Origin: Steroidobacteraceae bacterium
GTDB taxonomy: Bacteria; Pseudomonadota; Gammaproteobacteria; Steroidobacterales; Steroidobacteraceae
NCBI GenBank assembly: GCA_035568235.1
Contig: DATMOK010000027.1
Coordinates: 11,132-75,131, forward strand
Length of the DNA stretch: 64,000 bases
Direction: 5' to 3'
Shown: one piece after another, positions 24,777-60,682 of the stretch
Numbering within the stretch: position 1 is the stretch's first letter
How the letters are laid out: the number at the start of each line of letters is the position of its first letter
Notes under the pieces: model-generated
Seen by the model: the letters and a program-made list of their open reading frames with translations, nothing else
Told to the model about the DNA's origin: nothing
The model's database searches: none
Translations under genes and position numbers: made by a program

Positions 24777-24825
24777 CCGGCGGGCGGCGTTTTTCCGCGG
24801 GTTGCCCGCTGGGCGGGCGCGGCAC

Positions 24826-32652: not shown

Positions 32653-32759
32653 GAAAGGATGAGCCTTTTGGCGGGCCGGGAGTATAACGGACGGGCCCCG
32701 GTCACAGTCCCGCAAGGTCCGTCAACCGCCCGCCGGGCTGGCGCGCTATACAGCCTGGG

Positions 32760-36134: not shown

Positions 36135-36566
36135 TCAGCTTGGCGCGGCGCGCTCCACCACGGCCATAGTCAGCCGCGAGACGCACACCAGGCGCTGCTG
36201 CTCGTCGCGGATCTCAATATGCCACACGTGACTCGTCCTGCCGAGATGAAACGGCCGGGCCGTTGCGGTGACGAGACCGGACGACACCTTGCGCAGGTGA
36301 TTGGCGTTGATGTCCTGCCCAAGCACCAGGCAGCTGGAATCGACGCACAGCATGGACGCCATGCTGCCCACCGTCTCGGCGAGCGCCACGGAGGCGCCGC
36401 CGTGCAGCACGCCGAAGGGCTGATGCGTGTGCTCGTTCACGGGCATGGTGGCGCGCAGGAAGTCGGGCCCGATCTCGACGATACGGATGCCGAGATGGCC
36501 GGGCAGCGTGCGGCTGCCGCGCTCCGTCAGCTCCTCGGGTGTGGTCGCCACGCGCCAGATGCTCAT
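36135..36566 (-). CDS. PaaI/YbdB-type hotdog-fold thioesterase
   Basis: The motif GVLHGGASVALAETVGS and the length (143 aa) are typical of the family. Confidence 0.8.
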   Translation of the reverse strand: MSIWRVATTPEELTERGSRTLPGHLGIRIVEIGPDFLRATMPVNEHTHQPFGVLHGGASVALAETVGSMASMLCVDSSCLVLGQDINANHLRKVSSGLVTATARPFHLGRTSHVWHIEIRDEQQRLVCVSRLTMAVVERAAPS

Positions 36567-36611
36567 GAGAGCTAGTCTAGCCGCTCACGCGGTGGCAATC
36601 TTCCCACCCTC

Positions 36612-37304
36612 ATGAGCGAGTTTGTCCTGCCACCTCCCGCCCTGCCGGCAGTGGCCGTCGAGGGCGGCGGGCGCTTCGCCGTGCGCCGCATCTACTGCGT
36701 GGGTCTCAACTACGCCGACCACATCCGCGAATTCGGGCGCGACCCCAAGGCCTCGCCGCCGGTGTTCTTCATGAAGCCCGCGGACGCCCTGGTCGCCAAC
36801 GGCGCGGCGATTGCGTATCCGCCGCGCACCGCGAATTTCCACTACGAGATCGAGCTGGTGGTGGCGATCGGCCGCGCGGGCACACGCATCGCGCCGGCGA
36901 GCGCGCTCGAGCACGTGTTCGGCTACGCCGCGGGCAACGATCTCACCCGGCGCGACCTGCAGAAGGCGGCCAAGGAGCGCGGTGATCCGTGGGACATAGC
37001 GAAAGGATTCGATCAGTCCGCTCCGGTCGCCGCCATTCGCCCGGCGAGCCGCGGTCATCTCACCCGGGGGCGCATCTGGCTGCGCGTCAACGGCGAGCGG
37101 CGTCAGGAATCTGACCTCGGTCAGATGCTGTACGACGTGCCACATCTCATCGCCGAGCTGTCGACGCTGTTCACGCTCCGGCCCGGCGATCTCATCTTCA
37201 CCGGTACACCCTCGGGTGTCGGGCCGGTGCAGCCCGGCGACCGGCTCGAGGGCGGGATCGAAGGACTCGAAGTGCTCACCAACACCATCGTCGCACAGCC
37301 ATGA
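36612..37304 (+). CDS. Fumarylacetoacetate hydrolase (FAH) family protein, short form (fumarylpyruvate/FAHD-like)
   Basis: The 230-aa sequence has FHYEIELVVAIG and GDLIFTGTPSGVG. It overlaps the downstream isomerase gene (ATGA). Confidence 0.85.
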   Translation: MSEFVLPPPALPAVAVEGGGRFAVRRIYCVGLNYADHIREFGRDPKASPPVFFMKPADALVANGAAIAYPPRTANFHYEIELVVAIGRAGTRIAPASALEHVFGYAAGNDLTRRDLQKAAKERGDPWDIAKGFDQSAPVAAIRPASRGHLTRGRIWLRVNGERRQESDLGQMLYDVPHLIAELSTLFTLRPGDLIFTGTPSGVGPVQPGDRLEGGIEGLEVLTNTIVAQP

Positions 37305-37945
37305 AGCTCTATCATTTCTTCCGCAGCTCGGCCTCCTACCGCGTGCGCATCGCGCTCAACGTCAAGGGCATCGCCTACCAGGCGGTGGCAGTCGACCTGC
37401 GGCCACAGGTCCACGGGCAGCGCACACCGGAGTTTCTCGCGCTCAACCCGCAGGGGCTCGTGCCGGTGCTCATCGATGGCGAGCACACGCTCACGCAGTC
37501 GCTGGCGATCATCGAGTATCTCGAGGAGACTCACCCGCAGCCGCCGTTGCTGCCGCGGGATCCGACGGCCCGGGCCCGGGTGCGCGCGCTGGCGCTCGAG
37601 ATCGCCTGCGAGATGGCCCCGCTCAACAATTCCGGCGTGCTCGAGCACCTGCGTGGGGCGCTGAAGATGGATGACGCCGCGGTGAATGCCTGGTACGCCC
37701 AGTGGATCGCCCGCGGCTTCCACTCTCTCGAGCAGCAGGCAGGCAAGACGAGCGGCGACGGCCGGCACATGTTCGGCTCCGGGGTGACGCTCGCCGACGT
37801 GCTGCTCGTGCCGCAGATGTACAACGCGCGGCGCTTTCACTGCGATCTCGCTCCCTATCCGCAGCTGCGCGCGATCGCCGCGCACCTCGAGACGCTGCCG
37901 GCATTCGCCCGCGCGGCACCGGAGCTGCAGGAGGGTGCGCAGTAG
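37301..37945 (+). CDS. maiA: Maleylacetoacetate/maleylpyruvate isomerase (zeta-class GST)
   Basis: The N-terminus LYHFFRSSASYRVRIALNVKG and LNPQGLVPVL are typical of GST zeta. Confidence 0.85.
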   Translation: MKLYHFFRSSASYRVRIALNVKGIAYQAVAVDLRPQVHGQRTPEFLALNPQGLVPVLIDGEHTLTQSLAIIEYLEETHPQPPLLPRDPTARARVRALALEIACEMAPLNNSGVLEHLRGALKMDDAAVNAWYAQWIARGFHSLEQQAGKTSGDGRHMFGSGVTLADVLLVPQMYNARRFHCDLAPYPQLRAIAAHLETLPAFARAAPELQEGAQ

Positions 37946-37948
37946 GAA

Positions 37949-38512
37949 TCAACCGGCGGAGGTGGCCCGCCGCACGAATGCCACGTAGCCCGCGAGGAAC
38001 TGCTTGAGCTGCTCCTCGACGCCCGCATCCTTCAGGTTACCGGCGTCATCGAACAGCGTGCTCGCCCGCGCGACCTGCAGCCGTCCGCCGGACCAGACCT
38101 GCGTGCCGAGCGTGCGCAGCACCGGCAGCCATGCCGCCTGCGACAGAATCGTTCCGAAGCCACCGGGAGAGGCGCCGATGATAGCGAACGGCCGGCCGCC
38201 GAATACGCGCCTGGCATCCGTGTTGGGGCGCGACAACCAGTCGATGGTGTTCTTGAACACGCCCGGAATGCTGTTGTTGTACTCAGGCGTTACGAGCAGC
38301 ACGCCGGCGGCGGCCACTACCGCCTCCTTGAGCTGCGCTACGGCCGCAGGGATTCCCTGCGCCTCGACGTCGCCGTCATACAGCGGGATGCCGCGGATGC
38401 TCGCCACCTCGAGGCCCGCATCGTCCGGCATGAGCCGGGTCGCCGCGCGCAGCAGGCTTGAGTTGTAGGAGCCGCGGCGCAGGCTCCCCGAGATCCCGAG
38501 CAGCTTGAGCAT
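37949..38512 (-). CDS. NADPH-dependent FMN reductase
   Basis: Family motifs are LLGISGSLRRGSYN and LLVTPEYNNSIPGVFKNTIDWLSRP. The gene lies 13 nt downstream of argH and has its own AGGAGG Shine-Dalgarno. Confidence 0.85.
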   Translation of the reverse strand: MLKLLGISGSLRRGSYNSSLLRAATRLMPDDAGLEVASIRGIPLYDGDVEAQGIPAAVAQLKEAVVAAAGVLLVTPEYNNSIPGVFKNTIDWLSRPNTDARRVFGGRPFAIIGASPGGFGTILSQAAWLPVLRTLGTQVWSGGRLQVARASTLFDDAGNLKDAGVEEQLKQFLAGYVAFVRRATSAG

Positions 38513-38525
38513 CGCGCCTCCTGTG

Positions 38526-39710
38526 TCATTCCCGCAGCTTGGCCGCCACGCGCCGGTACGCCTCGCGGAACGGGATGCCCTCGCGCACCGCCAGGCGGTT
38601 GGCTTCCTCGGCCGCGTTGATCGCCGGATCGAGTCTGATCGCTTCGCGGTTGAATTGCATCGCAGCGATGGCGGGCGGCAGGATCGCGAGCGTCTCGAGG
38701 CCTAAGTCGATGCCGCGGAACAGCGGGAACTTGACGAGCTGCAGGTCGCGGTTGTAGCCGGAGGGGAGCTTGGCGCACACCGCGAGTGCCTCGATGAGGC
38801 ACGCCTGCGCGGTGGCGGAGCGGGCGCGGATGAGCTCGAATACGTCCGGGTTGCGCTTCTGCGGCATGATCGAGGAGCCGGTGGTGAAGGCCTCCGGGAG
38901 CGTGAGAAAGCCGAACTCGCGCGTGGCGTACAGCAGAACGTCGGCGGCGAACCGCGACAGGTCCTGCATGAGGAGCGTGATCTCGAAGAGCAGCTGCGCC
39001 TCGGCCTTGCCGCGCGACAGCTGTACGGCGGTCACCGGCTCCTGCACTGCCGCGAAACCGAGCGCGGCGCGCGTCGCCTCGCGGTCGATGGCAAGTCCGG
39101 GGGTGCCATAGCCGGCCGCGCTGCCGAGCGGATTGCGCGACACGCGGCGCGACACCGCGGTGAGGCCGGCGGCATCATCGCGCAGCTCGGCCGCGAATCC
39201 CCCGGCCCACAGCGGCACCGAGCTCGGCATGGCCTGCTGCATGTGCGTGTAGCCGGGCAGCGCGGTCGCGGCCTCGCGGATCCCGAGCTCATCGAGCGCA
39301 TCCGCCACCTCGAGCGCGCCGGCGCTTAAGTCCTCTATGGCCTCGCGCAGGTACAGGCGGATGGCGGCGAGCACCTGGTCGTTGCGCGAGCGCCCGAGGT
39401 GGATGCGCGCTCCGGCGGCGCCGATCCGCTCGGTGAGCCGCCGCTCGAGCGCGGTCTGGCCGTCCTCGTCCTCGAGCTCGACGTGCCACAGGCCGCGCGC
39501 GTGCTCATCGGCCAGCGCCACGAGCGCCGCGCGGATCGCATCGAGGTCATCGAGCGACATGAGCTGGCAGGCATTGAGCATCTCGGCGTGCGCGATCGAG
39601 GCGCGCACGTCGTAGCGCACCAGGCGCTCATCGAGCGCGTAGTCCTCGCCGGCGGTGTAGCGCAGCACACGCTCATCGAGCGGGGCGCCCTTGTCCCAGA
39701 GACGTGTCAT
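38526..39710 (-). CDS. argH: Argininosuccinate lyase
   Basis: The ATG at 39710 overlaps the argB stop (ATGA). The fumarate-lyase signature GSSIMPQKRNPD is present, as is the N-terminal MTRLWDKG. Confidence 0.9.
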   Translation of the reverse strand: MTRLWDKGAPLDERVLRYTAGEDYALDERLVRYDVRASIAHAEMLNACQLMSLDDLDAIRAALVALADEHARGLWHVELEDEDGQTALERRLTERIGAAGARIHLGRSRNDQVLAAIRLYLREAIEDLSAGALEVADALDELGIREAATALPGYTHMQQAMPSSVPLWAGGFAAELRDDAAGLTAVSRRVSRNPLGSAAGYGTPGLAIDREATRAALGFAAVQEPVTAVQLSRGKAEAQLLFEITLLMQDLSRFAADVLLYATREFGFLTLPEAFTTGSSIMPQKRNPDVFELIRARSATAQACLIEALAVCAKLPSGYNRDLQLVKFPLFRGIDLGLETLAILPPAIAAMQFNREAIRLDPAINAAEEANRLAVREGIPFREAYRRVAAKLRE

Positions 39711-40642
39711 GAGGTGCTCTGCTGCTCCGCCTGGGTGAGGGCGTTGATGTCGGAGACGATGAGGGTTCCGGTCCCCTCGTTGGTGAACACCTCCCCGAGG
39801 ATGCCCTCCGGGGCGCGGTACGACACCACGTGCACGCGGCGTACACCGCCGCGCAGCGCGTCCTCGATCGCCCTGGTCTTCGGCAGCATGCCGTCGGCGA
39901 TCCGTCCCGCTTCGCGCAGACGCTTCAGGCCCGCCAGATCGGTATAGGAGATGAGCGAGCCGGGGTCGCTGACGGAACCCAAGATGCCCGGCGTGCCGGT
40001 GCACAGGATCAGCTTCTCGGCATCGAGCGCCGCGCCGATCGCGGCCGCCACCGTGTCGGCGTTGATGTTGAGCAGCGTGCCGCTCTCATCCGCCGACAAG
40101 GGGCTCACGACCGGCATGAGGCCGTTGTCGAGCAGCTTGCGGATGACCGTAGTGTCGACCGCATCGATGTCGCCGACGAAGCCGTAGTCGACGGGCGGCC
40201 CGTCCTCGCTCACGCGCACCGGCGGGCGCTTGTGGGCGCGCACCAGCCCGGCATCGACGCCGCTGATGCCGACCGCATCGACGTTGAGGTCGCGGCACAT
40301 GGCGAGCAGCTGCGTGTTGATGAGGCCGTTGAGCACCATCGCCGTCACGTCGATCGAGCGCGCATCGGTCACCCGGCGTCCATCGACCATCTGCGTCGGC
40401 ACGCCGAGCGCGGTGGCGAGCTCGGTGAGCTGCGGCCCGCCGCCGTGCACCAGCACCACGCGCACGCCGAAGTAATGCAGGATCCCGATCTGCTCGACCA
40501 GCGTGCGGGTCAGGTCGCGCTCGGCGAATACTCCGCCGCCGGCTTTCACCACGAAGGTCTTGCCCTTGTACATGCGGATGTAGGGTGCGGCGCTCTTCAG
40601 GGCGCGGATCGCGAGAGTCTGGTCGCCTCGATGCATGATCAT
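39707..40642 (-). CDS. argB: Acetylglutamate kinase
   Basis: The N-terminal region reads AAPYIRMYKGKTFVVKAGGG and the amino-acid kinase fold motifs VLVHGGGPQ are present. 311 aa. Confidence 0.9.
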   Translation of the reverse strand: MIMHRGDQTLAIRALKSAAPYIRMYKGKTFVVKAGGGVFAERDLTRTLVEQIGILHYFGVRVVLVHGGGPQLTELATALGVPTQMVDGRRVTDARSIDVTAMVLNGLINTQLLAMCRDLNVDAVGISGVDAGLVRAHKRPPVRVSEDGPPVDYGFVGDIDAVDTTVIRKLLDNGLMPVVSPLSADESGTLLNINADTVAAAIGAALDAEKLILCTGTPGILGSVSDPGSLISYTDLAGLKRLREAGRIADGMLPKTRAIEDALRGGVRRVHVVSYRAPEGILGEVFTNEGTGTLIVSDINALTQAEQQSTS

Positions 40643-40656
40643 TTGCGGAGTTTTCC

Positions 40657-41661
40657 TTACGCTTCGGGCTTCAACAGTCGGTGCAGCACGGCCATCTGCA
40701 CGTTAAGCCGGTTGGCCGCCTCGCGCTGCACGGCGCTGCGCGCTCCGTCGAGCACCTCGTCGGCGATCGCGGTGTTGCGCCGTACCGGCAGGCAGTGCAG
40801 GAGGCGGCAGTCGCGCGCGGTGCGGGTAAACCAGTCGTCGCGCACGCACCAGCTCTTGAGCGTGCTGCGCAGGCGCGCATCCCCCGCCGCATCGCCGTAG
40901 CAGGCGGTCGCGCCCCACTCCTTGACGTACAGGATGTCGGCTCCCTCGAGTGCCTCGGCGCGCTCGGTCGTCTCGCGTACCGAGCCGCCGGCGGCGGCCG
41001 CAGCTGCCTGCGCGCGCTCCATGACGGCAGCGGGAAGCGCGAACCCTTCCGGGCGCAGCACGGTGACCTGCATGCCGCGCATGGCCGCCATATGCAGCGC
41101 CGCCGCGGGAACCGCCAGCGGCAGGGCGCGCGGATGCCACGCCCAGGAGAGCACGAAGCGCCCGCCGTGCGGCACGCCAAGATCATCGATCGTCTTCCAG
41201 TCGGCGAGCGCCTGACACGGGTGATCGAGCGCCGACTCGAGATTGACGAGCGGCTTCACCGTAAGCTCCGCCATGGCATTGAAGGCGGTCTCGGCGAGAT
41301 CGCTCTCGAGCGTCCTGCCTTCGGCGAACTGGCGGATGCCGAGCACGTCGCAGTAGGAGCTGAGCACCGGGATCGCCTCACGCACGTGCTCGGCGGCCGC
41401 GCCATCCATCACCGCACCGATGCGGGTCTCGAGCTGCCAGCTGCCCTGTCCCGGGTGAATGACGAACGAGCTCCCCCCGAGGCGCGCCATCGCCGCCTGG
41501 AACGAGGCGAGTGTGCGCAGCGAGGGATTGAACATGAGCAGGCCCAGGATCTTGCCGGCGAGCGCCTGCGGCTCAGGCGAGCGCTGCAGGCGCCGCGACA
41601 ACTCCAGCAGCGACAGCACCTGCTCGCGCTTGAGCTCGCTCAGGGAAACGAAGCGTTTCAC
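40657..41661 (-). CDS. argF': N-acetyl- (or N-succinyl-) ornithine carbamoyltransferase (ArgF' type)
   Basis: The GTG start overlaps the argD stop (GTGA). It has FNPSLRT and HCLPVRRN rather than the canonical OTCase motifs. It resembles the Xanthomonas AOTCase as I recall it. Confidence 0.8.
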   Translation of the reverse strand: MKRFVSLSELKREQVLSLLELSRRLQRSPEPQALAGKILGLLMFNPSLRTLASFQAAMARLGGSSFVIHPGQGSWQLETRIGAVMDGAAAEHVREAIPVLSSYCDVLGIRQFAEGRTLESDLAETAFNAMAELTVKPLVNLESALDHPCQALADWKTIDDLGVPHGGRFVLSWAWHPRALPLAVPAAALHMAAMRGMQVTVLRPEGFALPAAVMERAQAAAAAAGGSVRETTERAEALEGADILYVKEWGATACYGDAAGDARLRSTLKSWCVRDDWFTRTARDCRLLHCLPVRRNTAIADEVLDGARSAVQREAANRLNVQMAVLHRLLKPEA

Positions 41662-42860
41662 GGATCGAGATCCTTGAGCGCATCGCGCAGCGCATCCACG
41701 TGCTGCTCCTCGAGAATGTAGGGCGGCAGGAGCCGCAGCACATTGGGGTCGGCTGAGGTGCCGGCGAGGATGCCGCACTCGATGAGCTCGGCATGGATGT
41801 CCTTCGCCGGCCGCCGGGTGCGCAACCCCAACAGCAGCCCGACCCCCTGCACCGCAGTCACGGGACCCACGATGCAGGTGCGGCGGATGTAGGCACTGAG
41901 GCGCCGCACGCGCTCGATGAGCTTCTGCTCGCGCATCGCCGCCAGCACCGCGTTCACCGCCGCGCACGCCATCGGCCCGCCGCCGAAGGTGGTGCCGAGC
42001 GACTCGACTTTGAGCGAAGCGGAGACCAGCGGCGACATCATGAGCGCGCCGACCGGAAAGCCGTTGCCGAGCGCCTTGGCGGCGGTCAGCATGTCGGGCC
42101 GCACGCCGTAGAGATTGGCCGCGAATGGCTCGCCGCTGCGGCCCATGCCGCACTGCACCTCATCGAATATGAGGAGCGCTCCGACCTCATCGCAGCGCGC
42201 GCGCAGCGCCGCAAGGAACGGCGCGCCGAGCGCTACCGCGCCGGCGACCCCCTGCACCGGCTCGACGATCACCGCCGCGGTGTCGCGGCTCACCTGGGCG
42301 GTGATCGCGGCGTGGTCGCCGCGCGCAATGAAGCTGACCTCGAACGGGGTGCGCGGATAGCCATACCACTTGGCCTGTGCTCCAAAGGTGACCGCGCCCG
42401 CACCCGCGGTGCGGCCGTGGAAGGCACCCTCGATGGCGGCGACGTGCGCGCGGCCGGTCATGCGCAGCGCCACCTTGAGCGCGTTCTCGTTCGCCTCCGC
42501 TCCCGAGTTGACGAAGAACACGCTGCCAAAGGGGAGCTTCGAGAAGCGCACCAGACGGCGTGCGGCCTTGGCGCGCACCTGCATCGCGACCGCATTGCTC
42601 TGAAACTGGCACTCCTGCGCCTGCCGGGCGAGCGCGGCCGTCCACTCCGGATGCCCGTAGCCGAGAGCTGCGACCGCATGTCCGCCGTACAGATCGAGCA
42701 GCCGCTCGCCGCGGCTGTTGGTGAGCCACACACCCTGGGCGGAGGCCACCTCGAGCGGGTATTGGGCGAACACCTGCGCCTGAAAGTCGCGCTGCGTGGG
42801 CTTCAGCGTCCTGCGCGTGCCACTCGCCGTGGCGGTCGCGGTCGGAGTTTTCTTCGGCAT
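41658..42860 (-). CDS. argD: Acetylornithine (acyl-ornithine) aminotransferase, class III PLP enzyme
   Basis: I chose the ATG at 42860. Family motifs are LYGGHAVAALGYGHP, FVNSGAEANE, LIFDEVQCGMGRSG and a TAAK Lys region. Confidence 0.85.
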   Translation of the reverse strand: MPKKTPTATATASGTRRTLKPTQRDFQAQVFAQYPLEVASAQGVWLTNSRGERLLDLYGGHAVAALGYGHPEWTAALARQAQECQFQSNAVAMQVRAKAARRLVRFSKLPFGSVFFVNSGAEANENALKVALRMTGRAHVAAIEGAFHGRTAGAGAVTFGAQAKWYGYPRTPFEVSFIARGDHAAITAQVSRDTAAVIVEPVQGVAGAVALGAPFLAALRARCDEVGALLIFDEVQCGMGRSGEPFAANLYGVRPDMLTAAKALGNGFPVGALMMSPLVSASLKVESLGTTFGGGPMACAAVNAVLAAMREQKLIERVRRLSAYIRRTCIVGPVTAVQGVGLLLGLRTRRPAKDIHAELIECGILAGTSADPNVLRLLPPYILEEQHVDALRDALKDLDP

Positions 42861-42871
42861 GGGGCTCGCCT

Positions 42872-43957
42872 TCAGGTCCAGCCGGGCGCGGGCTGCGTGA
42901 GACCCGAGGTCTCGGGCAGGCCCAGCATCCGATTCATCCATTGCACGGCGCCGCCCGCGGCGCCCTTCACCAGGTTGTCGATCGCGCACATGACGGCGAT
43001 CGTGCGGCCATCACTCACCGCCGCGAGGTGCGCGTAGTTGCTCGCGGCCACCTCCTTAACGTGCGGCGCGCGCTCGGCGACCCGCACGAAGGGGGCGCGC
43101 GCGTAGTACTCGCGCAGCGCGCCGCGTGCCGCCGTCGTGTCGAGCGCGCGCTTGAGCGGCGCCTGCACGGTAACGTATATGCCGCGCGCGAAGGGTCCGG
43201 AGTGCGGCACGAAGGCGAGCTGCGGCTCGACTCCCGTAGCCGAGCGCGCGCAGGCGACGATCTCGGGAGCGTGGCGATGGTCGAGGGCGTTGTAGCCGTA
43301 GAGATCCCCATGGCGCAGCGGGTGATGCGTCCCGTCGACGGGCTTGCGCCCCGAGCCGGTACTGCCGGTGACGCCGCTCGCAAACAGCGTGGGCTCGGCG
43401 AGCCCGAGGGCGAGCAGCGGCACCGAGGCGAGCAGCACCGCGGTCGCGAAGCACCCCGGGTGGCCCACGTGTGCCGTCGGCAGCTGCGCCAGGTGCTCGG
43501 GCAGCGCGCAGGTGAAATCCTTAATTAGCCCCGGGGCGCCGTGGGCGTGGCCGTAGACTTGCGTGTAGGCATCCGCCGAGGCATAGCGGAAGTCAGCCGA
43601 GATGTCGACCACGCGCGCACGGGTGCCGCTGCGCGCGCAGCTGCCGAGCAGTTGATCGACGAGACCCGCCGACACTCCGTGCGGCGCCGCCGAGAACACC
43701 GCCGCGGTGCGGCTCTCGGCGATGCGGCGCGCAGCTTCCGCGAGACTTGTGAAACGAGTCTCCGGGTAGGCGACCGCCAGATGCGGAAACGCCCCCGCCA
43801 CCGGCTCACCGGGCGAGCCGTCGGACATCACGGCGGCGAGCTCAAGCTGCGGGTGGCCGGCGATGAGGCGCAGCAGCTCGCCTGCCACATAGCCGGTGCC
43901 GCCCAGCACCACGGTCGGGACCGCCCCGGGGGACGCGCTCGCGCTGCGCTCGCTCAT
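42872..43957 (-). CDS. argC: N-acetyl-gamma-glutamyl-phosphate reductase
   Basis: The Rossmann motif is VLGGTGYVAGELLRL and the catalytic Cys context is GHPGCFATA. Its start overlaps the stop of the upstream unknown gene (ATGA). Confidence 0.9.
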   Translation of the reverse strand: MSERSASASPGAVPTVVLGGTGYVAGELLRLIAGHPQLELAAVMSDGSPGEPVAGAFPHLAVAYPETRFTSLAEAARRIAESRTAAVFSAAPHGVSAGLVDQLLGSCARSGTRARVVDISADFRYASADAYTQVYGHAHGAPGLIKDFTCALPEHLAQLPTAHVGHPGCFATAVLLASVPLLALGLAEPTLFASGVTGSTGSGRKPVDGTHHPLRHGDLYGYNALDHRHAPEIVACARSATGVEPQLAFVPHSGPFARGIYVTVQAPLKRALDTTAARGALREYYARAPFVRVAERAPHVKEVAASNYAHLAAVSDGRTIAVMCAIDNLVKGAAGGAVQWMNRMLGLPETSGLTQPAPGWT

Positions 43958-45018
43958 GCGGCCGCCGCGGCGCTTAGGCCCAGCGCTTCAATCACGCGGT
44001 CGCCGAGTGCGGCCGCGTTGCTGATCGCGTTGCAGGCCGCGACGCCCATCTGGCGCGTGATGATCTCTATTCCCACCTGGTTATCGGTAGCAGGTCCCGT
44101 GACGACACACGGCTCGATGTGAAAGCGCTCGCGCAGCAGCTGCACGCCGCCCCAGGCCGCCACCGGATCGTTCGCCGACAGCACCACGCCGCTGAGCGCG
44201 ATGCGGATGTCGGGGCACTCGAGGATGGCGTCCACGCCGTAAGTGCCGAGGATGCCGTCGCCGAGCTCGAACACCACCACGTCGGGCTTGCCGGCCGCGA
44301 GCTCGCTCAGCATGGTGCGGGTGAGCGCCGGGCCGTTGCTGCGGGTGGTGCTGATTACTCCCAGATCCGTGAAGATGGCGCAGCGCCGCGCGCCCGCATC
44401 CTCCATGGCGAGGATGTCACGCCGCAGTGAGACGCCGGTGGCCTTGAAGGCATCCACCGTCAGCCCGCGGTGGCGCATGCGCGCGATGATGGCGCAGGCG
44501 GCGGCGGTCTTGCCGGCTTCCATGCAGGTGCCGGCCAGTGCTACCACCGGCACGCCGCGCGTGTCGAGCGCGGCGTTCACATCGAGACGCTGGTAGCCGG
44601 CACGCGCCGGCACGCCGATGCGCTCGCCGAGATAGGGGAAGTTGAGCGCCACGCCGAGAACGCGGCAGTCGAACGGCTTGCCCTTCTCGGGATTGATCGA
44701 GTCGCAGATGCCAAGCACGCCGCCGATGTTGAGCATCTGCAGAACGTCACCAGGCCTGACGGACTCGGGCACGTGGCCGGAGTAGCCGAACAGCGCCTGG
44801 CGGTGCCCGAGCGCCCCGGCGACGATGTCGCCCTTGCCGACCTTGGCCATGCGCCCGGAGACCAGCTCGAGCGTGTTGTAGGTCGATTTGTTGTTGAGCA
44901 CTTCGACCACGACCACGACGCCTTCTTCCGCCGGGATATCGGCGGCGATGCGTACCTCGTGCGACAGCTCACAGGCCTGGGTGACCGAGGCGAGCTTGTC
45001 GACGATGATGCTGCGCAT
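43954..45018 (-). CDS. Uncharacterised protein: an unassigned N-terminal domain plus a P-loop-like C-terminal domain resembling DUF1611/DgcN
   Basis: 354 aa. The ATG at 45018 lies 10 nt after the argG stop, with AGGAGA upstream. The motifs are GTCMEAGKTAAACAIIARMRHRG...FKATG and DVVVFELGDGILG. Codon bias matches the neighbouring genes. The function is not established. Confidence 0.7.
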   Translation of the reverse strand: MRSIIVDKLASVTQACELSHEVRIAADIPAEEGVVVVVEVLNNKSTYNTLELVSGRMAKVGKGDIVAGALGHRQALFGYSGHVPESVRPGDVLQMLNIGGVLGICDSINPEKGKPFDCRVLGVALNFPYLGERIGVPARAGYQRLDVNAALDTRGVPVVALAGTCMEAGKTAAACAIIARMRHRGLTVDAFKATGVSLRRDILAMEDAGARRCAIFTDLGVISTTRSNGPALTRTMLSELAAGKPDVVVFELGDGILGTYGVDAILECPDIRIALSGVVLSANDPVAAWGGVQLLRERFHIEPCVVTGPATDNQVGIEIITRQMGVAACNAISNAAALGDRVIEALGLSAAAAA

Positions 45019-45028
45019 GCTGACCACG

Positions 45029-46282
45029 TCAGCTCTCCTGGTGCGCGGCTTGGCTTCCCGCGCGCGTGTAGAAGACCCCGGGGAGCGAGACGATACGCGA
45101 GAAGCCGAGCGCATCCGCCGCCGACCATTCCCCGGCCGCCTCGCCGTACACGCCGCGCGAAGCGGCCATCAGCGAGAACGGCGACTCGACACCCTCGATG
45201 AAGAGACTCCCGGTCTGCAGCTTGAAGCGCACCTCGCCCGTCACGCGCTCCTGGGATGACATGAGCAGCGCCTCGATGTCGCGGCACACCGGATCCAGCA
45301 GCTGGCCCTCGTGCACCAGATCGCCGTACGGCTGCGCGAGCTGCTCCTTGATGCGCTGCTGGCGGGCGGTGAGGGTGAGCTTCTCGAGCTCGCGGTGCGC
45401 CGTGAGCAGCACCTCCGCGGCCGGCGCCTCGAAGGCCACCCGCCCCTTGGTGCCGATGATCGTATCGCCGAGATGAATGCCGCGGCCGATGCCGAAGGGC
45501 GCGGCGAGCGCCTCCAGCGCCTCGACGATCGCGACCGGCGAGCCCTCACGGCCGTCGAGCGCCGTGGGCCGCCCTTTGACGAACGACAGCACGTGACGCT
45601 CCTCCTGGCGTGCGCGGGCGAAAGCATCACGGGTGAGGAGCCAGGCGTCCTCGGGGATGCTGCCCGCCGAGGTGAGCGTCTCCTTGCCGCCGATGGTGAC
45701 GCCCCAGAGTCCTCGATTCACCGAGTAGGCCGCGCCGGTCGGCGGGACCGGGAGCCCCCGGGCCTTGAGGTACTCGAGCTCCTCCTGGCGCTTGAAGGCG
45801 CGGTCGCGCACCGGCGCCAGCACGGCGAGGTCGGGCGCGAGGGTGCGCAGCGCCACCTCGAAACGTACCTGGTCATTGCCGGCCGCCGTGCAGCCGTGTG
45901 CCACCGTGTCGGACTTGAGCTCGCGCGCCATGCGCGCGATGGTCTGCGCCTGCATGACGCGCTCAGCGCCCACACACAGCGGATAGAGCGCCCCGCGCCG
46001 CACGTTCCCCATGATGAGAAAGCGCAGCACCTGCTCGAAATACGCCGCACGCGCATCGACCTGGTGGTGGGCGATGGCACCGAGCTCGCGCGCGCGCTCC
46101 TCGAGCGCGTGCGCGGCGGGGGCGTCGATGCCGCCGGTATCGACCGTCACCGTGATCACCGGGCGGTGCTGTGTGGCGGCGATCCATGGCACCAGGAACG
46201 AGGTGTCGAGGCCGCCGGAGTAGGCGAGAACGATGGGGGTGCTGCCCCCGGACGGGGCGCCTGGGCTCACTTCGTGGGGCAT
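45029..46282 (-). CDS. argG: Argininosuccinate synthase
   Basis: The N-type ATP-pyrophosphatase motif LAYSGGLDTS is present, along with other family blocks (GCTAAGNDQVRFE). Confidence 0.9.
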   Translation of the reverse strand: MPHEVSPGAPSGGSTPIVLAYSGGLDTSFLVPWIAATQHRPVITVTVDTGGIDAPAAHALEERARELGAIAHHQVDARAAYFEQVLRFLIMGNVRRGALYPLCVGAERVMQAQTIARMARELKSDTVAHGCTAAGNDQVRFEVALRTLAPDLAVLAPVRDRAFKRQEELEYLKARGLPVPPTGAAYSVNRGLWGVTIGGKETLTSAGSIPEDAWLLTRDAFARARQEERHVLSFVKGRPTALDGREGSPVAIVEALEALAAPFGIGRGIHLGDTIIGTKGRVAFEAPAAEVLLTAHRELEKLTLTARQQRIKEQLAQPYGDLVHEGQLLDPVCRDIEALLMSSQERVTGEVRFKLQTGSLFIEGVESPFSLMAASRGVYGEAAGEWSAADALGFSRIVSLPGVFYTRAGSQAAHQES

Positions 46283-46284
46283 GG

Positions 46285-46737
46285 TCAGATTCCGAACAGG
46301 GTACGGAGGCGCGCGAGGAGCTCGTCCTGCCCGCGCGCATTGGCGGTGGCGATGAAGATGGTGTCATCGCCGGAGATGGTGCCGGCGACTTCGGGCCACT
46401 CGGCCTTGTCGATCGCCACGGCGACCGACTGCGCCGCGCCGATGGTGGTGCGCAGCACGGTGATCGAGGGGCCGGCGCGGCGCAGCTCGCGCACGAACTG
46501 CGCCAGAGTGCCGAAGTCGCCGTTAGCGCGCGTCAGCTCATCGGGCGGCAGCACGTAGCCGCCGCTCGCCTTGAGCACGCCGAGCTCGCGCAGGTCGCGG
46601 CTGATCGAGGACTGGGTCGCATCCAACCCTTCCTTTCTGAGCAGCCGCACCAGGTCATGCTGCTTGCGCACGGCGCCCGAGCGCAGGATGCGCACGATGG
46701 CGCCGCGGCGCTGCAGTTGTTGCGTGTCGCTCAGCAT
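46285..46737 (-). CDS. argR: Arginine repressor
   Basis: 150 aa. The wHTH reads LVRLLRKEGLDATQSSISRDLRELG and the C-terminal oligomerisation/arginine-binding part has GTISGDDTIFI. Its stop lies 2 nt from the argG start. Confidence 0.85.
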   Translation of the reverse strand: MLSDTQQLQRRGAIVRILRSGAVRKQHDLVRLLRKEGLDATQSSISRDLRELGVLKASGGYVLPPDELTRANGDFGTLAQFVRELRRAGPSITVLRTTIGAAQSVAVAIDKAEWPEVAGTISGDDTIFIATANARGQDELLARLRTLFGI

Positions 46738-46750
46738 GCAGGGATTCGCC

Positions 46751-46789
46751 TAGGCATAAATATGCGATTATTGTGCATATTAATGCAAT
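46751..46789. promoter_or_regulatory. Tandem ARG-box-like operators (two 18-bp imperfect palindromes separated by 3 bp)
   Basis: The two boxes are TAGGCATAAATATGCGAT and TGTGCATATTAATGCAAT, with TGCAT/ATGCA half-sites. Their centres are 21 bp apart. They lie directly upstream of argR in the only AT-rich patch of this intergenic region. Confidence 0.55.
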
Positions 46790-46874
46790 GGAGTCAAGAC
46801 GCGGGCAACCGTGGGCTAGAATCCCGCGCCAGCGCCGCCGTCCCGGCGCCGCACATTCTTCAGGGGGGCTCTCC

Positions 46875-47351
46875 ATGCAATCACGACGCCCGATGCGCGC
46901 CCGCCGCGCCGTGCTGTTCGCCGCTGCCACCGGCCTGTCATTCGCCCTGTACGCGCAGACGCTCGGCCTGTCGCCCGGCATGTATGAATTCACCAGCACC
47001 ATGGACATGCAGCTGCCGCCCGACGTGGCGGCGAAGCTGCCGCCGCAGGCGCTGGCGATGATGCAGAAGCCGAACGTGACGCAGCACTGCATCAGCCAGT
47101 CGGACGTCGATCACGTCAGTCAGCAGATTGCGCAGGGCCAGAGCAATCAGCCGCAGAACTGCCAGATCACCGAGCACTCGGTGAGCGGCGGGCAGGTGAA
47201 GTTCACCACCCAGTGCGGCAAGCGGGTCGCGCACTTCGAGGGCACCTTCGCCTCCGACTCCTTCCAGGGCACCATGGTCTCGACCAGCGACAAGGGGCAG
47301 ACGGTCACCATCAAGATGTCGGCGCACCGCATCGGCGACTGCAGCAAGTAG
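46875..47351 (+). CDS. DUF3617 domain protein (secreted)
   Basis: I chose the ATG at 46875. It has a signal peptide, PGMYEF near the N-terminus of the mature protein, conserved Cys residues and the C-terminal RIGDC. Confidence 0.7.
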   Translation: MQSRRPMRARRAVLFAAATGLSFALYAQTLGLSPGMYEFTSTMDMQLPPDVAAKLPPQALAMMQKPNVTQHCISQSDVDHVSQQIAQGQSNQPQNCQITEHSVSGGQVKFTTQCGKRVAHFEGTFASDSFQGTMVSTSDKGQTVTIKMSAHRIGDCSK

Positions 47352-47362
47352 CCGCTGCGCGG

Positions 47363-50300
47363 CTACTTGGTGATCGAGTAGACGAGGTCCGCGCCGCGCG
47401 CGGTGCCGAGCTCGGTTTTGATGACCCAGTGGTCGCCGAGCGTGTAGCGGAGCTTGAGGGTGTTCAGCGTCTCGGTGATGCTCACGCCGTAGCTCACGTA
47501 CAGGCGCGGCGTGAGATAGTGGCCGAGCACCAGCGAGGTCTCGTTGGCGATCGGGTCGGTTTCGAGGCTGACATCGGGCAGGCCGACGCGTTGGCCGAGC
47601 TGCGCGGCGAGCAGCGCGGCACCCTGGCCGAGCGCTGCATTGCCCGCGGTCTGTGCCGACTGCGGCGAGCCACCCGAGAGGATGAGCGACACGATCTGTG
47701 ACTGCGGCAGCGGCGGGTCGGAGAAGAACGACATGCGCGGCTGCTGCAGCGTGCCGCGCACGTTGATACCGGCGGTCACGTCCGGGAACTCCTTGATGGC
47801 GCGCAGATCGATGCCCGGGTCATCGACCGCCCCACCGGTGAATATCAGCCGGCCGCGCTGGATGTCCAGCTTGCGCGCGTACGCGAGGTACTTGCCGTCG
47901 GCCACCGACAGCTCGCCGGTCGCGCGTGTGATCGCGTCGTAGCCGCTCCTGATGGTGACGGCGCCGGTGAGGCGGCCGGTGAGCCCCGAGGTGTCCACCG
48001 TCACCTTGTCGCCGAGGGTGAGCGTGATGGTGCTCATCACCTCGAAGCGCTCGGCGGGATTTTCCGGCTCGCTGCCGACGATCACCTCGTCCGGCGAGGT
48101 GCGCACCGCGTTGGTGATGTCCTTGGGTTGGATCTTCGCGAACGGCACCGTCACCTTGCCGGTCACCTCGATGCGTCTGCCCTGAACGTCGAAGTCGAGG
48201 TTCGGCGAGGCGTCGATCTGCGCCTCGGGAGTATCCGCTACCCGCAGGCTCGTGCCCTCGAGGTGGAATTTGCCGTACGGCAGCAGGTTGTGCCACTCGA
48301 GATGACCGTTCGCGGCCGCGCTGCCCGCGCCCGCGTGCGCGCTGCCTTTGAAGTCGAGGCCGCCGTTGTCGAGGTTTACCTCGAGCGCCGCCTGGCGCAG
48401 AGCGAGATTCACCTGGTAGAGGTCGAGCTCGCCGTTGACGACTTTCAGTGTGCCGTTCATGAGCGGCGCGCCGAGTGTGCCGCTGATGTTCACGTCGGTG
48501 TGCAGCTGGCCCGAGGCGCGGTCGATATCGGGGAAGTACAGCGACAGCAGGCCGAGATTCGAGGTCTCAGCGTGCAGCGCGCCGCTGAGCGGCATGTCCT
48601 GCCAGCGCGGGCTGCCGCGTTGCGCATCGACGCGCGCGCGGATGGTGCCGACGTCGCCGTTCTCGAGTACCGCGGCGACGCTGACTGCCTCGGGCGTGGC
48701 GCTCGCGGTCACGGTCCCCGAGCCGATGCGGCTGTGCTCGATCTTGCGGCTTGCCAGTCGGTGCGACAGCACCGCGTCGGCGAGCTGGGCGCGAAGCGTT
48801 CCCGTAATGGGGGTGTGCGCGCCGCCGGCTGCCCGTGCCAGCAGGTCGACCGTGCCCTGGTACTGCACGGCCGGTGTCATGCCGGCGGTGAGCGCCGACA
48901 GCGGCAGCTGGTTGCTCATCAGCGTGGCGGACCAGTGCTGCGGGCTCCAGTCGGCATCTGCGCACACGCTGCCCGGCGTTCCGGCGAGACACAGCCACTC
49001 GACCCGCAGCCGCTCGGGCGATGCCAGCAGGCCCACCGGATGCTCGAGGGCGAGATCAAGCGCATCGCGCCCCTTCACGGCGAGCGAATCGAGCTGACCC
49101 TGGAAGAGGCGGTGCGCGTAGGCGCCGTCGGCCTGCGCGGTCAGCGCGAGTCCCTGGGCCTCGGCCTCGAGATGCACCCGGGTGCTGGCCGGCGGACCGT
49201 TCACGGTGAGGGCCGCCTTGTCGAGCGTGTGGCCCGCGTAGCTCAACCCACTCAGGCGCGCGTCGATCTTCGCTGCGTGCGTCGGGTCGCTGGCGTCGAA
49301 GTCGACGTCCGCGTCCAGCTGCCCGAGATCGACCCCCGCGTAACTCAGCCCGCGGCCGTGGGCGCTGGCCGCGACCGCCGGCTCCGCGGCGGTACCGCGC
49401 ACCGTGCCGGAAGCGTCGAGCTGGCCGCGGCCGCCGACGCCGAGCAGGCTTAAGTCGGAGCTGGCGATCGCGAAGCGCAAATCGAGTCTGTCAGCCGCCT
49501 GTCCGTCGAGCGAGAGCGTCGTGCCGCCGAGCGCCACACGTACGCGCTCGAAGCGCCAGCCGTCGGAGGAGTGCTCGAGCGATCCGCCGCCGCTCGCCCG
49601 CGTGCCGCGCAGCTTGCCGCTCAGGGATTGAATCGTGACCCGAAGCTCCCCCTTGGGATCGAAGCCGCGCCCCGAGGCATTGAGTGAGAAGTTCAGGCTC
49701 CCCGGGAGATCGGCGCGCAGCGTCGCCGGATTGATGCCGGTGAGCTGCCCGCTCACCGACCAGGTGTCGTGCGGCGTCCACTCCACCGCGCCCGTGACTT
49801 CGGCATGGCCGTCGAAGAGATCCACAGCGGCGTGCTCGAAGGCGAAGCTGTCCTTGCCGAGAGTGCCCGTGACCTCGATGGGGCTCGGGGGGAGCCCGGC
49901 GGCGCTCGCCTCTCCTTTCGCGTGCACGTGGTAGGGCAGCAGGCCCTCGAGCGTGAAGCTTCCCGAGGCGCTCTTCAGCGCCGGGTCGTGCCCGGTGAGC
50001 GGCCAGCGAAAGTCCTCCCAGTTGCCCGCGATGTCGAGTCGCGGGCCGTTGGGAACGATGGTGAAAGTGCCCGAGCCCTGCGCGCGTGCACCCGAGGCCT
50101 CGTGACGCGCCTCCATGTGCCGCGCGGTGAGCGTATGGCCGGCAAACGCACCCTCGAAGCGCGCCTGGAAGCTGCCGGCACGCAGCCCCGTCGGGTCGAC
50201 GGTGCCACGGCCGGTGAAGCCGTGCTCATCCCAGCCGACCGCCAGGTGCGCTGTCATCACCCCGAGCGGCCCGGAGATGCCCCAGGCCCGCAGGTCGAAG

Positions 50301-51082
50301 TTCTGTACCGCTGCATTGCCCTGGATGTGCCAGCGGTTGGTGAGATCGAGCGCCGCCCCGGTGAAGTCGGCGCGGAACGGGCTGAGCGCGTGCGCCGTGA
50401 GCATGAGCGCTTTGAGGTTGCCCTTTGCCGTGCCGTCGACGCTCCAGGCGGGCTGTCCGGCCGGTGCCCAGTCGAGGTGTCCCTGGCCCTCGATCCCGAG
50501 CGGATCGCGCGCGCGCAGCTCGCCGATCGCGTTCACGTCGGCGTCGAAGAGGCGGCCCTGTGCCTGGAAGAAGCGGATGGTGCGATGGCGCAGCACCGCG
50601 ACGGTCGTGATGTGCGTGGCCTCGAGCCGCACACCGTTGTACACCGTGAGCACCGCGTCATCGACCGTGGCGTGCTCAGCGCTGATCAGCAGCCAGCGCG
50701 GCACGAACGGCGGCATCGGCGACGGTGTGGGCGGATGGGTACGCCGCTTAACCTCGATGAGCGCGGTGTGGACCGAGGCCTCGGGGGAGCGGATGGTCTG
50801 CAGCAGCAGCGGGGCGAGCGCCACGCGCCCGTCTATCCCGGTGAACGTCAGGTGTACGAGCTCGTGGTCGATCTCGACGCGATCGACGTGCAGCCCGCTC
50901 GCGATCGTGCCGCGCACGCCGACGATCGTGAGGCGCACGGGACCTAAGTGCTCGGGGATATGCCGCACCACGAACTGCAGTCCCGACTGCGTGAACACGG
51001 CGCACACGACCAGCGTCGCGGGCACCACCACCACGATGAGCACCAGCAGGCAGGCGGCGAAGAGGATCAGCAGGCGGCGCAT
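47363..51082 (-). CDS. tamB: Translocation and assembly module inner-membrane subunit TamB (DUF490)
   Basis: The ATG at 51082 gives an N-terminal TM anchor (MRRLLILFAACLLVLIVVVV). The 1239-aa protein is beta-rich with a DUF490-like C-terminus. It lies 13 nt downstream of tamA. Confidence 0.9.
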   Translation of the reverse strand: MRRLLILFAACLLVLIVVVVPATLVVCAVFTQSGLQFVVRHIPEHLGPVRLTIVGVRGTIASGLHVDRVEIDHELVHLTFTGIDGRVALAPLLLQTIRSPEASVHTALIEVKRRTHPPTPSPMPPFVPRWLLISAEHATVDDAVLTVYNGVRLEATHITTVAVLRHRTIRFFQAQGRLFDADVNAIGELRARDPLGIEGQGHLDWAPAGQPAWSVDGTAKGNLKALMLTAHALSPFRADFTGAALDLTNRWHIQGNAAVQNFDLRAWGISGPLGVMTAHLAVGWDEHGFTGRGTVDPTGLRAGSFQARFEGAFAGHTLTARHMEARHEASGARAQGSGTFTIVPNGPRLDIAGNWEDFRWPLTGHDPALKSASGSFTLEGLLPYHVHAKGEASAAGLPPSPIEVTGTLGKDSFAFEHAAVDLFDGHAEVTGAVEWTPHDTWSVSGQLTGINPATLRADLPGSLNFSLNASGRGFDPKGELRVTIQSLSGKLRGTRASGGGSLEHSSDGWRFERVRVALGGTTLSLDGQAADRLDLRFAIASSDLSLLGVGGRGQLDASGTVRGTAAEPAVAASAHGRGLSYAGVDLGQLDADVDFDASDPTHAAKIDARLSGLSYAGHTLDKAALTVNGPPASTRVHLEAEAQGLALTAQADGAYAHRLFQGQLDSLAVKGRDALDLALEHPVGLLASPERLRVEWLCLAGTPGSVCADADWSPQHWSATLMSNQLPLSALTAGMTPAVQYQGTVDLLARAAGGAHTPITGTLRAQLADAVLSHRLASRKIEHSRIGSGTVTASATPEAVSVAAVLENGDVGTIRARVDAQRGSPRWQDMPLSGALHAETSNLGLLSLYFPDIDRASGQLHTDVNISGTLGAPLMNGTLKVVNGELDLYQVNLALRQAALEVNLDNGGLDFKGSAHAGAGSAAANGHLEWHNLLPYGKFHLEGTSLRVADTPEAQIDASPNLDFDVQGRRIEVTGKVTVPFAKIQPKDITNAVRTSPDEVIVGSEPENPAERFEVMSTITLTLGDKVTVDTSGLTGRLTGAVTIRSGYDAITRATGELSVADGKYLAYARKLDIQRGRLIFTGGAVDDPGIDLRAIKEFPDVTAGINVRGTLQQPRMSFFSDPPLPQSQIVSLILSGGSPQSAQTAGNAALGQGAALLAAQLGQRVGLPDVSLETDPIANETSLVLGHYLTPRLYVSYGVSITETLNTLKLRYTLGDHWVIKTELGTARGADLVYSITK

Positions 51083-51095
51083 GAGGTACCGCCGC

Positions 51096-59741: not shown

Positions 59742-60668
59742 CTAGTAGATGGCGAGCTCGCGACGGCCGGAGGAGTCGCGCGCGCCGCGGTACATGCCCT
59801 CGGTGCTGAAGTCCATGACGATATGGCCGCCGCGGTCGACCGCGATCAGGCCGCCATCGCCGCCGAGGCTCTTGAGAACCTCGTGCAGCAGCTCGGCGAT
59901 GGCCTGCGCGAGTGTCAGCCCGCGGTACTCGACCGCCGCGCACACGTGATGCGCGGCTACGGCGCGGATGAAGTATTCCCCGTGCCCGGTGGCCGACACC
60001 GCGCACACGCCATCCTTGGCGTAGGTCCCGGCACCGATGATGGGCGAGTCGCCGACCCGCCCGGGACGCTTGTTGGTCATGCCGCCGGTGGAGGTGGCGG
60101 CGGCGAGGTGGCCCTGGGCGTCGCAGGCCACCGCGCCCACCGTGCCCCCGGGCGGCTCGCTCGCTTCGGTTGGCGGTACCAGGTCCGACACCCGCTCGCC
60201 GCGCTGCTCGCACTCGAGCTGCATCTGCCGCTCGGGGGTACGGAAGTAATGATTGGCGATGAGCGCCATGCCTTCCTCGAGCGCGAACTCCTCGGCCCCC
60301 GGGCCGACGAGCAGCACGTGCCGCGACTTCTCCATCACGCGCCGTGCGAGCTCCACGGGGTTGCGCACGTGGCGCACCGAGGCGACCGCGCCGGCGCGCA
60401 GATTGCGGCCGTCCATGATGGCCGCGTCGAGCTCGGCGGCACCCTCGCGGGTCAAGGCGGCCCCGCGGCCGGCGTTGAACATCGGTTCATCCTCGAGCAT
60501 GCGCACCGCCTCGGTCACCGCATCGAGGCTCGAGCCGCCGCGCTCGAGCACGCCGTAACCAGCGTCGAGCGCGGCCTCGAGGCCGGCGCGATAGCGCTGC
60601 TCGCGTTGCGGCGACAGCGTCGCGCGCGGCACGGCGCCGGCTCCTCCGTGGATGGCGATCGCGTACAT
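59742..60668 (-). CDS. iaaA: Isoaspartyl peptidase / L-asparaginase (Ntn-hydrolase, plant type), cytoplasmic paralogue
   Basis: The sequence has IAIHGGAG, NAGRGAALT and the autoprocessing GTVGAVA site. No signal peptide is present. A GGGAGG Shine-Dalgarno precedes the start. Confidence 0.9.
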   Translation of the reverse strand: MYAIAIHGGAGAVPRATLSPQREQRYRAGLEAALDAGYGVLERGGSSLDAVTEAVRMLEDEPMFNAGRGAALTREGAAELDAAIMDGRNLRAGAVASVRHVRNPVELARRVMEKSRHVLLVGPGAEEFALEEGMALIANHYFRTPERQMQLECEQRGERVSDLVPPTEASEPPGGTVGAVACDAQGHLAAATSTGGMTNKRPGRVGDSPIIGAGTYAKDGVCAVSATGHGEYFIRAVAAHHVCAAVEYRGLTLAQAIAELLHEVLKSLGGDGGLIAVDRGGHIVMDFSTEGMYRGARDSSGRRELAIY

Positions 60669-60682
60669 CGAGCCTCCCGCCT

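Follow-up and report, generated by a model that had tools for sequence, protein, structure and literature searches.

A P-loop protein family of arginine operons, represented in Steroidobacteraceae, comprises predicted N-succinyl-L-glutamate synthases

The first step is the most variable of arginine synthesis, and the solutions known for it include ArgA, ArgJ, short GNAT proteins, ArgH(A) fusions, and LysW/ArgX. DgcN, a non-GNAT protein with a P-loop domain, is reportedly an acetyl-coenzyme A (acetyl-CoA)-dependent D-glutamate N-acetyltransferase. Among the GNAT synthases of the BT3761/Cabys_1732 type, the Bacteroides enzyme works with a succinyl-type ArgF' and is encoded within an arg cluster (PMC7311316). 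The closest described system is ACG33_RS14135 (A0A127FCT3) of Steroidobacter denitrificans, for which Price et al. (2024-2026 preprint) made the same prediction that is considered here. Their grounds were linkage to the arg operon, the presence of argE near some homologues, and position 92 of ArgF'. They also reported that no genome has homologues of ACG33_RS14135 together with homologues of ArgA, and that A0A127FCT3 gives a weak Foldseek match to DgcN (PDB 7XRJ, e = 1.4e-7, root mean square deviation [rmsd] 5.6 Å), whose use of acetyl-CoA is cited there as well (Yu et al. 2023, ISME J 17:537). Here, we describe a gene, called X, within the arginine operon of a Steroidobacteraceae bacterium (contig DATMOK010000027.1), in a stretch of 64,000 nucleotides (nt) that we refer to as the window. 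Judged by its gene context and sequence, X is probably the enzyme of the first committed arginine step, making N-succinyl-L-glutamate.

X, the predicted N-succinyl-L-glutamate synthase gene, occupies positions 43954-45027 of the minus strand. It lies in a run of eight minus-strand genes arranged head to tail (argR-argG-X-argC-argD-argF'-argB-argH), separated by -4 to +14 nt; such an arg cluster is also the setting described for the predicted alternative ArgA family. The initial annotation, which gave coordinates without a strand, had described a 354-amino-acid (aa) open reading frame (ORF) translationally coupled on both sides, and the minus-strand sequence agrees with this. Translation of 43954-45018 gives 354 aa free of internal stops, the argG stop (TGA, 45031-45029) precedes the ATG at 45018 by 10 nt, with AGGAGA at 45039-45034, and the X stop overlaps the argC start as ATGA (43957-43954). 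The translation carries KGDIVAGALGHRQALFGYSGHVP, GTCMEAGKTAAACAIIARMRHRG, FKATG, and DVVVFELGDGILG; all of the motifs quoted earlier are present, though the spacer before FKATG, previously counted as six residues, is 5 residues after RHRG. An in-frame GTG at 45027, 1 nt past the argG stop and 6 nt past AGGAGA, is more likely to be the start than ATG 45018, because of this spacing and because close homologues are annotated at 357 aa beginning MVSMRS; the product from this GTG is 357 aa and begins VVSMRS. A start at ATG 45114 (386 aa) was rejected, as it lies 86 nt inside argG, no Shine-Dalgarno sequence precedes it, and the GTG/ATG positions are where homologues start. Residue numbers given below are those of the 354-aa form. 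That X is a real gene and not a chance reading frame is confirmed by its thousands of homologues and by its top conservation within the operon.

Family scans of the arg cluster in the window found neither an N-acylglutamate synthase nor an N-acyl-citrulline/ornithine deacylase. No match to the GNAT, ArgJ, M20, or AstE families was obtained among the approximately 50 window ORFs of high third-codon-position GC content (GC3) scanned with Pfam or NCBIfam, and tblastn of the 64-kb window with AstE-like and M20 protein queries also returned no match. The lack of GNAT and ArgJ matches among the scanned ORFs bears out the earlier statement that the operon has no N-acylglutamate synthase. The N-acylglutamate kinase gene argB (39707-40642, minus strand, 311 aa; TIGR00761, 213 bits against a cut-off of 151) encodes the kinase domain only, without a GNAT domain, and ArgA models match just the kinase half (positions 6-299 of 441). 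X itself showed no GNAT, amino-acid-kinase, or ArgJ domain in Pfam or NCBIfam, even at E ≤ 10.

The gene context of X was then surveyed at 165 loci from several phyla. These comprised 80 Steroidobacteraceae loci and 85 diverse loci (approximately 36-49% identity to X) from metagenomes, a Planctomycetes metagenome-assembled genome (MAG), and a contig with a protein that NCBI names Candidatus Gracilibacteria. X was found within the same arg gene order at all 80 Steroidobacteraceae loci, a few of which were without argD or were cut by contig ends. At the diverse loci, argG was the upstream neighbor of X at 59 of the 69 that could be evaluated, and argC was the downstream neighbor at 63 of 66. The arg linkage that the initial annotation had relied upon thus extends to several phyla, with X nearly always between argG and argC. 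For example, a 49%-identical relative sits in the order argG-X-argC-argD, and the Planctomycetes MAG has argR-argG-argH-X-argC-argD-argF'-argB. The Gracilibacteria-type contig (L087:5779-14235) reads argG-argF'-X-argC-argD-argB-(AstE/aspartoacylase family)-argH, a complete arginine cluster, which is surprising given that such lineages are generally considered to lack amino-acid biosynthesis. Thirty-one diverse clusters continue for over 1.2 kb beyond argB; in 24 of these, a gene for an M20 deacylase of the ArgE/DapE family stands between argB and argH, and one more has an AstE-like gene instead. The clusters with a deacylase encode every step but the first, plus X, which by elimination points to X as the likely N-acylglutamate-forming enzyme.

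A single 626-aa ORF (P0240), found on four contigs (L081:10001-11881, L082, L083, and L084), joins X to an ArgB-like kinase (TIGR00761, E = 7e-37). By analogy, this fusion parallels the build of classical ArgA from a kinase and an acyltransferase. As called, P0240 is missing the first ~43 residues of the X domain, and its start is possibly mis-called; the gene is outside any arg cluster and is divergently adjacent to an arginase gene (TIGR01229, 230 bits). Two further apparent fusions, of X with ArgC (P0178) and of ArgG with X (P0223), were discarded as frameshifted calls with long low-complexity wrong-frame stretches, which still show that the genes are adjacent, and P0150 was discarded as a frameshifted call of the same kind. 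Collectively, the arg linkage, the presence of a deacylase elsewhere in the cluster, and the X-ArgB fusion give strong comparative genomic support to the predicted role as an N-acyl-L-glutamate synthase, which had initially been put forward as a guess.

The same loci bear on the suggestion that X could instead take the place of ArgE as the deacylase that is missing, desuccinylating N-succinylcitrulline, or be an ArgJ-like transacylase returning succinyl to glutamate. In the Xanthomonas cluster, argE presumably stands directly after argG, in the place of X, which would suit a deacylase. Consistent with this, no M20 or AstE-type deacylase was found in the window, nor up to ~10 kb from the cluster at any of the 80 Steroidobacteraceae loci, and S. 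denitrificans is reported to be without a recognizable ArgE as well as ArgA (Price et al.). However, the hydrolase step is already filled in the diverse clusters where X accompanies an M20 deacylase or the AstE-like protein, and the fusion partner of X is ArgB, the enzyme of step 2, and not a late-pathway enzyme. Moreover, transacylation by itself would be unable to start the cycle, and to our knowledge the P-loop NTPase fold is not represented among amide hydrolases. We therefore regard a deacylase or transacylase role for X as very unlikely. Hydrolase genes that are not linked to the arg cluster do occur in the window, encoding an amidase-signature protein (17872-19683, plus strand) and an isoaspartyl-peptidase/Asparaginase_2 protein (59742-60776, minus strand), and at locus L089 an Asparaginase_2 gene lies two genes downstream of argB.

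The acyl group of the pathway is probably succinyl and not acetyl, as judged from the neighboring ArgF', which has the signature residues of N-succinylornithine carbamoyltransferases. Three positions are diagnostic (92, 185, and 302 in Xanthomonas campestris numbering, with a 20-residue tag offset, checked against PDB chains): acetyl-type enzymes have E92/N185/K302, and succinyl-type enzymes have A/S/P/V/Q, then P, then V/I/E (PMC4581275). The window argF' gene (40657-41661, minus strand; NF003384, 332 bits against a cut-off of 288) encodes an N-acylornithine carbamoyltransferase and begins with a GTG that overlaps the argD stop (GTGA). Aligned to the PDB chains, its product reads A92/P185/A302. 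Its best PDB sequence matches are X. campestris chains with Ala or Ser at position 92, which score best because the window ArgF' itself has Ala92; the third chain shown has Glu. Across the survey, none of 116 ArgF' proteins encoded beside X had Glu92; the residue was Ala in all 73 from Steroidobacteraceae and A, V, T, Q, S, or P in all 43 from diverse loci. Pro185 occurred in 107 of 109; at position 302, all but one had A, V, E, or I. The combination A-P-A is fixed in the Steroidobacteraceae ArgF' proteins with full coverage (71 of 71), and the diverse relatives are mostly A/V-P-V/E. The AstE-like gene of the Gracilibacteria-type cluster also fits a succinyl group. We note that the window ArgF' passes an NCBIfam model named "N-acetylornithine carbamoyltransferase" despite its succinyl-type A92 and P185.

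X belongs to a large family. A search of 5.8 billion proteins returned 6645 homologues at E ≤ 1e-3, all of them "hypothetical" and without Pfam domains, the best being from Steroidobacteraceae MAGs at 85-94% identity. A 50%-clustered library held 1439 cluster representatives, with full-length members down to ~30% identity, and the named sources included Pyrinomonadaceae, Planctomycetes, Gracilibacteria, Peregrinibacteria, and Patescibacteria. Scanning genome contigs with X recovered close Steroidobacteraceae relatives only (77-92% identity). Across the 80 Steroidobacteraceae loci, the mean identity was 84.5% for X versus 70.0-80.5% for the arg enzymes, and X topped conservation in 69 of 75 loci. 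Alignments of 46 (A1), 38 (A2), and 10 sequences (A3, used for the metagenome scan) were built. In A1, the invariant residues are R73, P84, G100, K192, G195, D201, G209, A210, G220, D284, and G308. The Walker A residues G169-K170-T171 and the motif E251-x-G-x-G are nearly invariant in the family, and Cys165 is not conserved, varying to S, G, A, I, R, or D.

The AlphaFold2 (AF2) model of X (pLDDT 95.5, pTM 0.91) comprises two domains. The N-terminal domain, from residue 1 to about 130-150 (44569-45018, minus strand), is all-beta, with strands only by DSSP bar a helix at 11-16, and residues 1-150 modelled alone are also all-beta (pLDDT 92.6). It contains R73, P84, and G100 in the motif G-x-L-G-x-R-x-A-L-x-G-x-x-G-x-x-P. 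No Pfam match falls within residues 1-150, and Foldseek of this domain against the PDB, in a library that includes DUF1611 structures such as 2obn, returned no match (best E = 1.2, TM ≤0.21); the modelled domain may represent a fold family without a solved member. The C-terminal domain, residues 155-354 (43957-44556, minus strand), is a SIMIBI/BioD-like P-loop domain according to Foldseek, profile searches, and hhalign. Foldseek of X against the PDB placed dethiobiotin synthetase first (1dts, E = 1.7e-6; also 1dae and 3of5), followed by HypB, SRP/FtsY, and CTP synthetase. A single-sequence search against PDB chains gave nothing at E ≤ 10, and the A1 profile gave BioD 3fgn as its best PDB match (E = 5.7e-4), with FtsY also matched; these were P-loop-level matches only and included no DUF1611 chain. 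By hhalign, X aligns with Escherichia coli BioD over 101 columns (E = 1.9e-4, probability 47%), pairing X G163..K170-T171 with BioD G8..K15-T16, X K192 with K37, and X E251 (ELGDG) with E115; a pairing of X D201 with BioD D54 was unsupported by hhalign and was dropped. The Walker A motif, G163-T-C-M-E-A-G-K170-T171 (44506-44532, minus strand), has GKT in at least 90% of A1 and invariantly in A2. It is conserved across the X family together with the equivalents of BioD K37 and E115, as expected of a BioD-like SIMIBI P-loop. No BioD family model appeared in the Pfam or NCBIfam output for X, which held only CobB, MobB, and CobQ P-loop fragments (E 0.04-0.12).

The initial annotation had likened X to DUF1611 and DgcN, and this likeness was found around the P-loop and not over the remainder of the profile. 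DUF1611, which is described as a P-loop domain (Pfam PF07755), was the top Pfam match of X, with 16.2 bits (E = 0.0072) against a cut-off of 25 bits, at residues 156-195 and over 39 of the 201 profile positions (12-50). The best-scoring relatives of X reached 22-26 bits, always over the P-loop segment only (positions ~10-50), and the MobB and CbiA P-loop models score X similarly. NCBIfam gave nothing beyond P-loop-length matches far below the cut-offs. The DUF1611 structure 2obn_B ranked 37th by Foldseek (E = 1.7e-4, rmsd 5.2, 241 columns), behind the SIMIBI folds, though its TMq of 0.42 was the highest in the list, and the DgcN structure 7XRJ was absent from the best 50 matches. Literature searches for DUF1611 with arginine, or for DgcN, found nothing usable. 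Membership of DUF1611 was rejected, as the sequence match is below threshold and confined to the P-loop and the all-beta N-terminal domain is unmatched. X is instead its own large, unnamed, two-domain family, with a P-loop domain of the class common to BioD and DUF1611.

In BioD-type families, ATP activates a carbonyl or carboxyl oxygen, after which a C-N bond forms. X might accordingly be read as an ATP-dependent ligase of the BioD/CobQ/CTP-synthetase type, which would make an acyl phosphate from free succinate, or from a different carboxylate, for transfer to the glutamate amino group, without acyl-CoA. The nearest solved folds, dethiobiotin synthetases, would agree with such a chemistry, as would the match to CTP synthetase and the family-wide conservation of the Walker A motif (GxxxxGKT) and of the equivalents of BioD K37 and E115, which we take to be catalytic and Mg-site residues. 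However, DgcN is reportedly acetyl-CoA-dependent although it has a P-loop, and P-loop conservation therefore does not separate the two chemistries. With BioD, hhalign reaches a probability of only 47% across 101 columns, and no adenine-recognition motif was identified in X. Furthermore, every other N-acylglutamate synthase that we know of uses an acyl-CoA donor or transfers the acyl group from acetylornithine. An ATP-dependent succinate:L-glutamate ligase acting via succinyl phosphate, with the N-terminal beta domain as a new glutamate-binding module, is thus conceivable but unlikely; in Steroidobacteraceae, the same enzyme or a moonlighting DapE could then complete the pathway.

The Foldseek matches to the nickel chaperone HypB and to SRP/FtsY GTPases, and the weak MobB and CbiA P-loop model matches, could also suggest an accessory NTPase, such as a SIMIBI metallochaperone, an assembly factor, or a regulator of an arg enzyme. 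Such a role would leave step 1 without a candidate in hundreds of clusters. X has no conserved metal-binding Cys/His motif, and the Steroidobacteraceae clusters have no metallo-deacylase for a chaperone to serve. In addition, the large N-terminal domain, rich in invariant residues (R73, P84, and G100), resembles a substrate-binding module, and X is more conserved than the arg enzymes themselves. We consider an accessory function to be very unlikely. The initial annotation had ranked deacylase and regulatory roles below synthesis, and this ranking stands, given that most clusters carry their own deacylase and that step 1 otherwise has no candidate.

We therefore return to X as a predicted N-succinyl-L-glutamate synthase and propose the following scheme. 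X would acylate L-glutamate at its alpha-amino group, most probably with succinyl, to give N-succinyl-L-glutamate, and would replace GNAT-type ArgA, ArgJ, and BT3761-like synthases in a non-orthologous displacement. The product would then pass through ArgB, ArgC, ArgD, and the succinyl-type ArgF', and a desuccinylase encoded elsewhere in the genome would act after ArgF', ahead of ArgG and ArgH. X would be co-transcribed and translationally coupled with the other pathway genes, under ArgR. The BioD-like P-loop domain may hold succinyl-CoA by its 3'-phospho-ADP moiety, as in DgcN, which is distantly similar and depends on acetyl-CoA, and the N-terminal beta domain may hold glutamate with its invariant Arg73. 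By analogy, the DgcN precedent favors succinyl-CoA as the donor.

Several points weigh against this assignment. ATP or GTP is the usual substrate of P-loop NTPases, and CoA-dependent transfer is not the default for the fold. The likeness of X to DgcN/DUF1611 is weak and nonspecific, as Foldseek scores BioD, HypB, and SRP GTPases higher. Two steps appear to be without a recognized enzyme in Steroidobacteraceae, and X would fill only one of them unless it is bifunctional; S. denitrificans, likewise, is reported to have no recognizable ArgE (Price et al.). The check for ArgA and ArgJ extended over the 64-kb window only, and Ala302 of the window ArgF' falls outside the published V/I/E set. Finally, Price et al. 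label the role of ACG33_RS14135 a prediction.

The remaining genes of the operon are all on the minus strand. The first, argR (46285-46737), encodes the arginine repressor (TIGR01529 argR_whole, E = 5e-30, 104 bits, below the 130-bit cut-off) and is separated by 2 nt from argG (45029-46282), which encodes argininosuccinate synthase (TIGR00032, 271 bits; cut-off 268). Downstream of X lie argC (42872-43957; TIGR01850, 281 bits; cut-off 233.6), the ATG of which overlaps the X stop, and argD (41658-42860), encoding N-acylornithine aminotransferase (TIGR00707/NF002874, E ~1e-94). The last gene, argH (38526-39710), encodes argininosuccinate lyase (TIGR00838, 294 bits; cut-off 279.5), and starts with an ATG that shares ATGA with the argB stop. 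Upstream of argR, a sigma-70-like site (TTGACT-16-CACAAT, 46797-46770) was noted, which is weak, with 1 found versus 0.7 expected by chance, and no terminator-like sites were found inside 37900-47400.

Upstream of the operon, at 47363-52955 (minus strand), TamB-like (1258 aa) and TamA-like (619 aa) ORFs were identified by eye from their translations, and a 71-codon ORF with 100% GC3 and no Pfam match lies between these and argR (47147-47362, minus strand). The region downstream of argH holds a gene for an NADPH-dependent FMN-reductase-like protein (37949-38512, minus strand) and a glutathione S-transferase gene (37301-37945, plus strand), followed by an FAA-hydrolase-family gene (36576-37304, plus strand) and a 4HBT acyl-CoA thioesterase gene (36135-36584, minus strand). 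Other genes in the window include polA (29878-32721, minus strand), an ammonium transporter gene (23251-24879, minus strand), xerC (12159-13157, plus strand), and genes for a GGDEF-EAL sensor (3271-6033, plus strand) and a TonB-dependent receptor (15215-17932, minus strand). A tRNA gene (25926-25999, plus strand, 68 bits) was the sole Rfam match in the window.

If the predicted role is correct, this P-loop enzyme would be another non-orthologous displacement at the first arginine step, and X would be the long-missing glutamate-succinylating activity outside Bacteroidetes. It would also close recurring false "arginine auxotroph" calls in genome-based metabolic reconstructions, which affect abundant soil Steroidobacteraceae, Planctomycetes, Acidobacteria, and some bacteria of the candidate phyla radiation. 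Were X a ligase, arginine synthesis would have an acyl-CoA-independent start.

The initial annotation had presented this role as a new solution for the first step of arginine synthesis; it had in fact already been proposed by Price et al., and the functional hypothesis is known, as a prediction, in the literature and in GapMind. From the 85-94% identity of the best Steroidobacteraceae matches and from the description of the operon, we infer that X belongs to the predicted alternative ArgA family typified by ACG33_RS14135. The two are likened by bacterial family, according to best hits, and as hypothetical proteins of an arg cluster. Supporting observations given for ACG33_RS14135 are independently reproduced for X, namely arg linkage, argE in some relatives, a non-Glu92 ArgF', and remote DgcN likeness. 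Beyond that work, the present analysis adds the BioD-like fold, the N-terminal domain without a PDB relative, the X-ArgB fusion, the AstE-like variant, and the three-residue survey of ArgF'.

The other known systems resemble X in part. BT3761/Cabys_1732-type GNAT synthases, ArgA, and ArgJ share its proposed pathway role but have no sequence or fold relationship to it. BioD is its best structural and PDB profile match and shares the GT-x-x-x-x-GKT Walker A motif and the Lys and Glu that correspond to K37 and E115; it differs in that identity is 14-16%, X has an extra 150-aa N-terminal domain, and X is linked to arg and not bio genes. The N-terminal domain of X, being all-beta, also differs from that of DUF1611, which we take to be Rossmann-like. 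DgcN/DUF1611 shares with X the proposed reaction class, N-acylation of glutamate by a non-GNAT protein with a P-loop domain. Whereas DgcN belongs to D-glutamate catabolism, X would act on L-glutamate with a succinyl donor, in an anabolic role within the arg operon.

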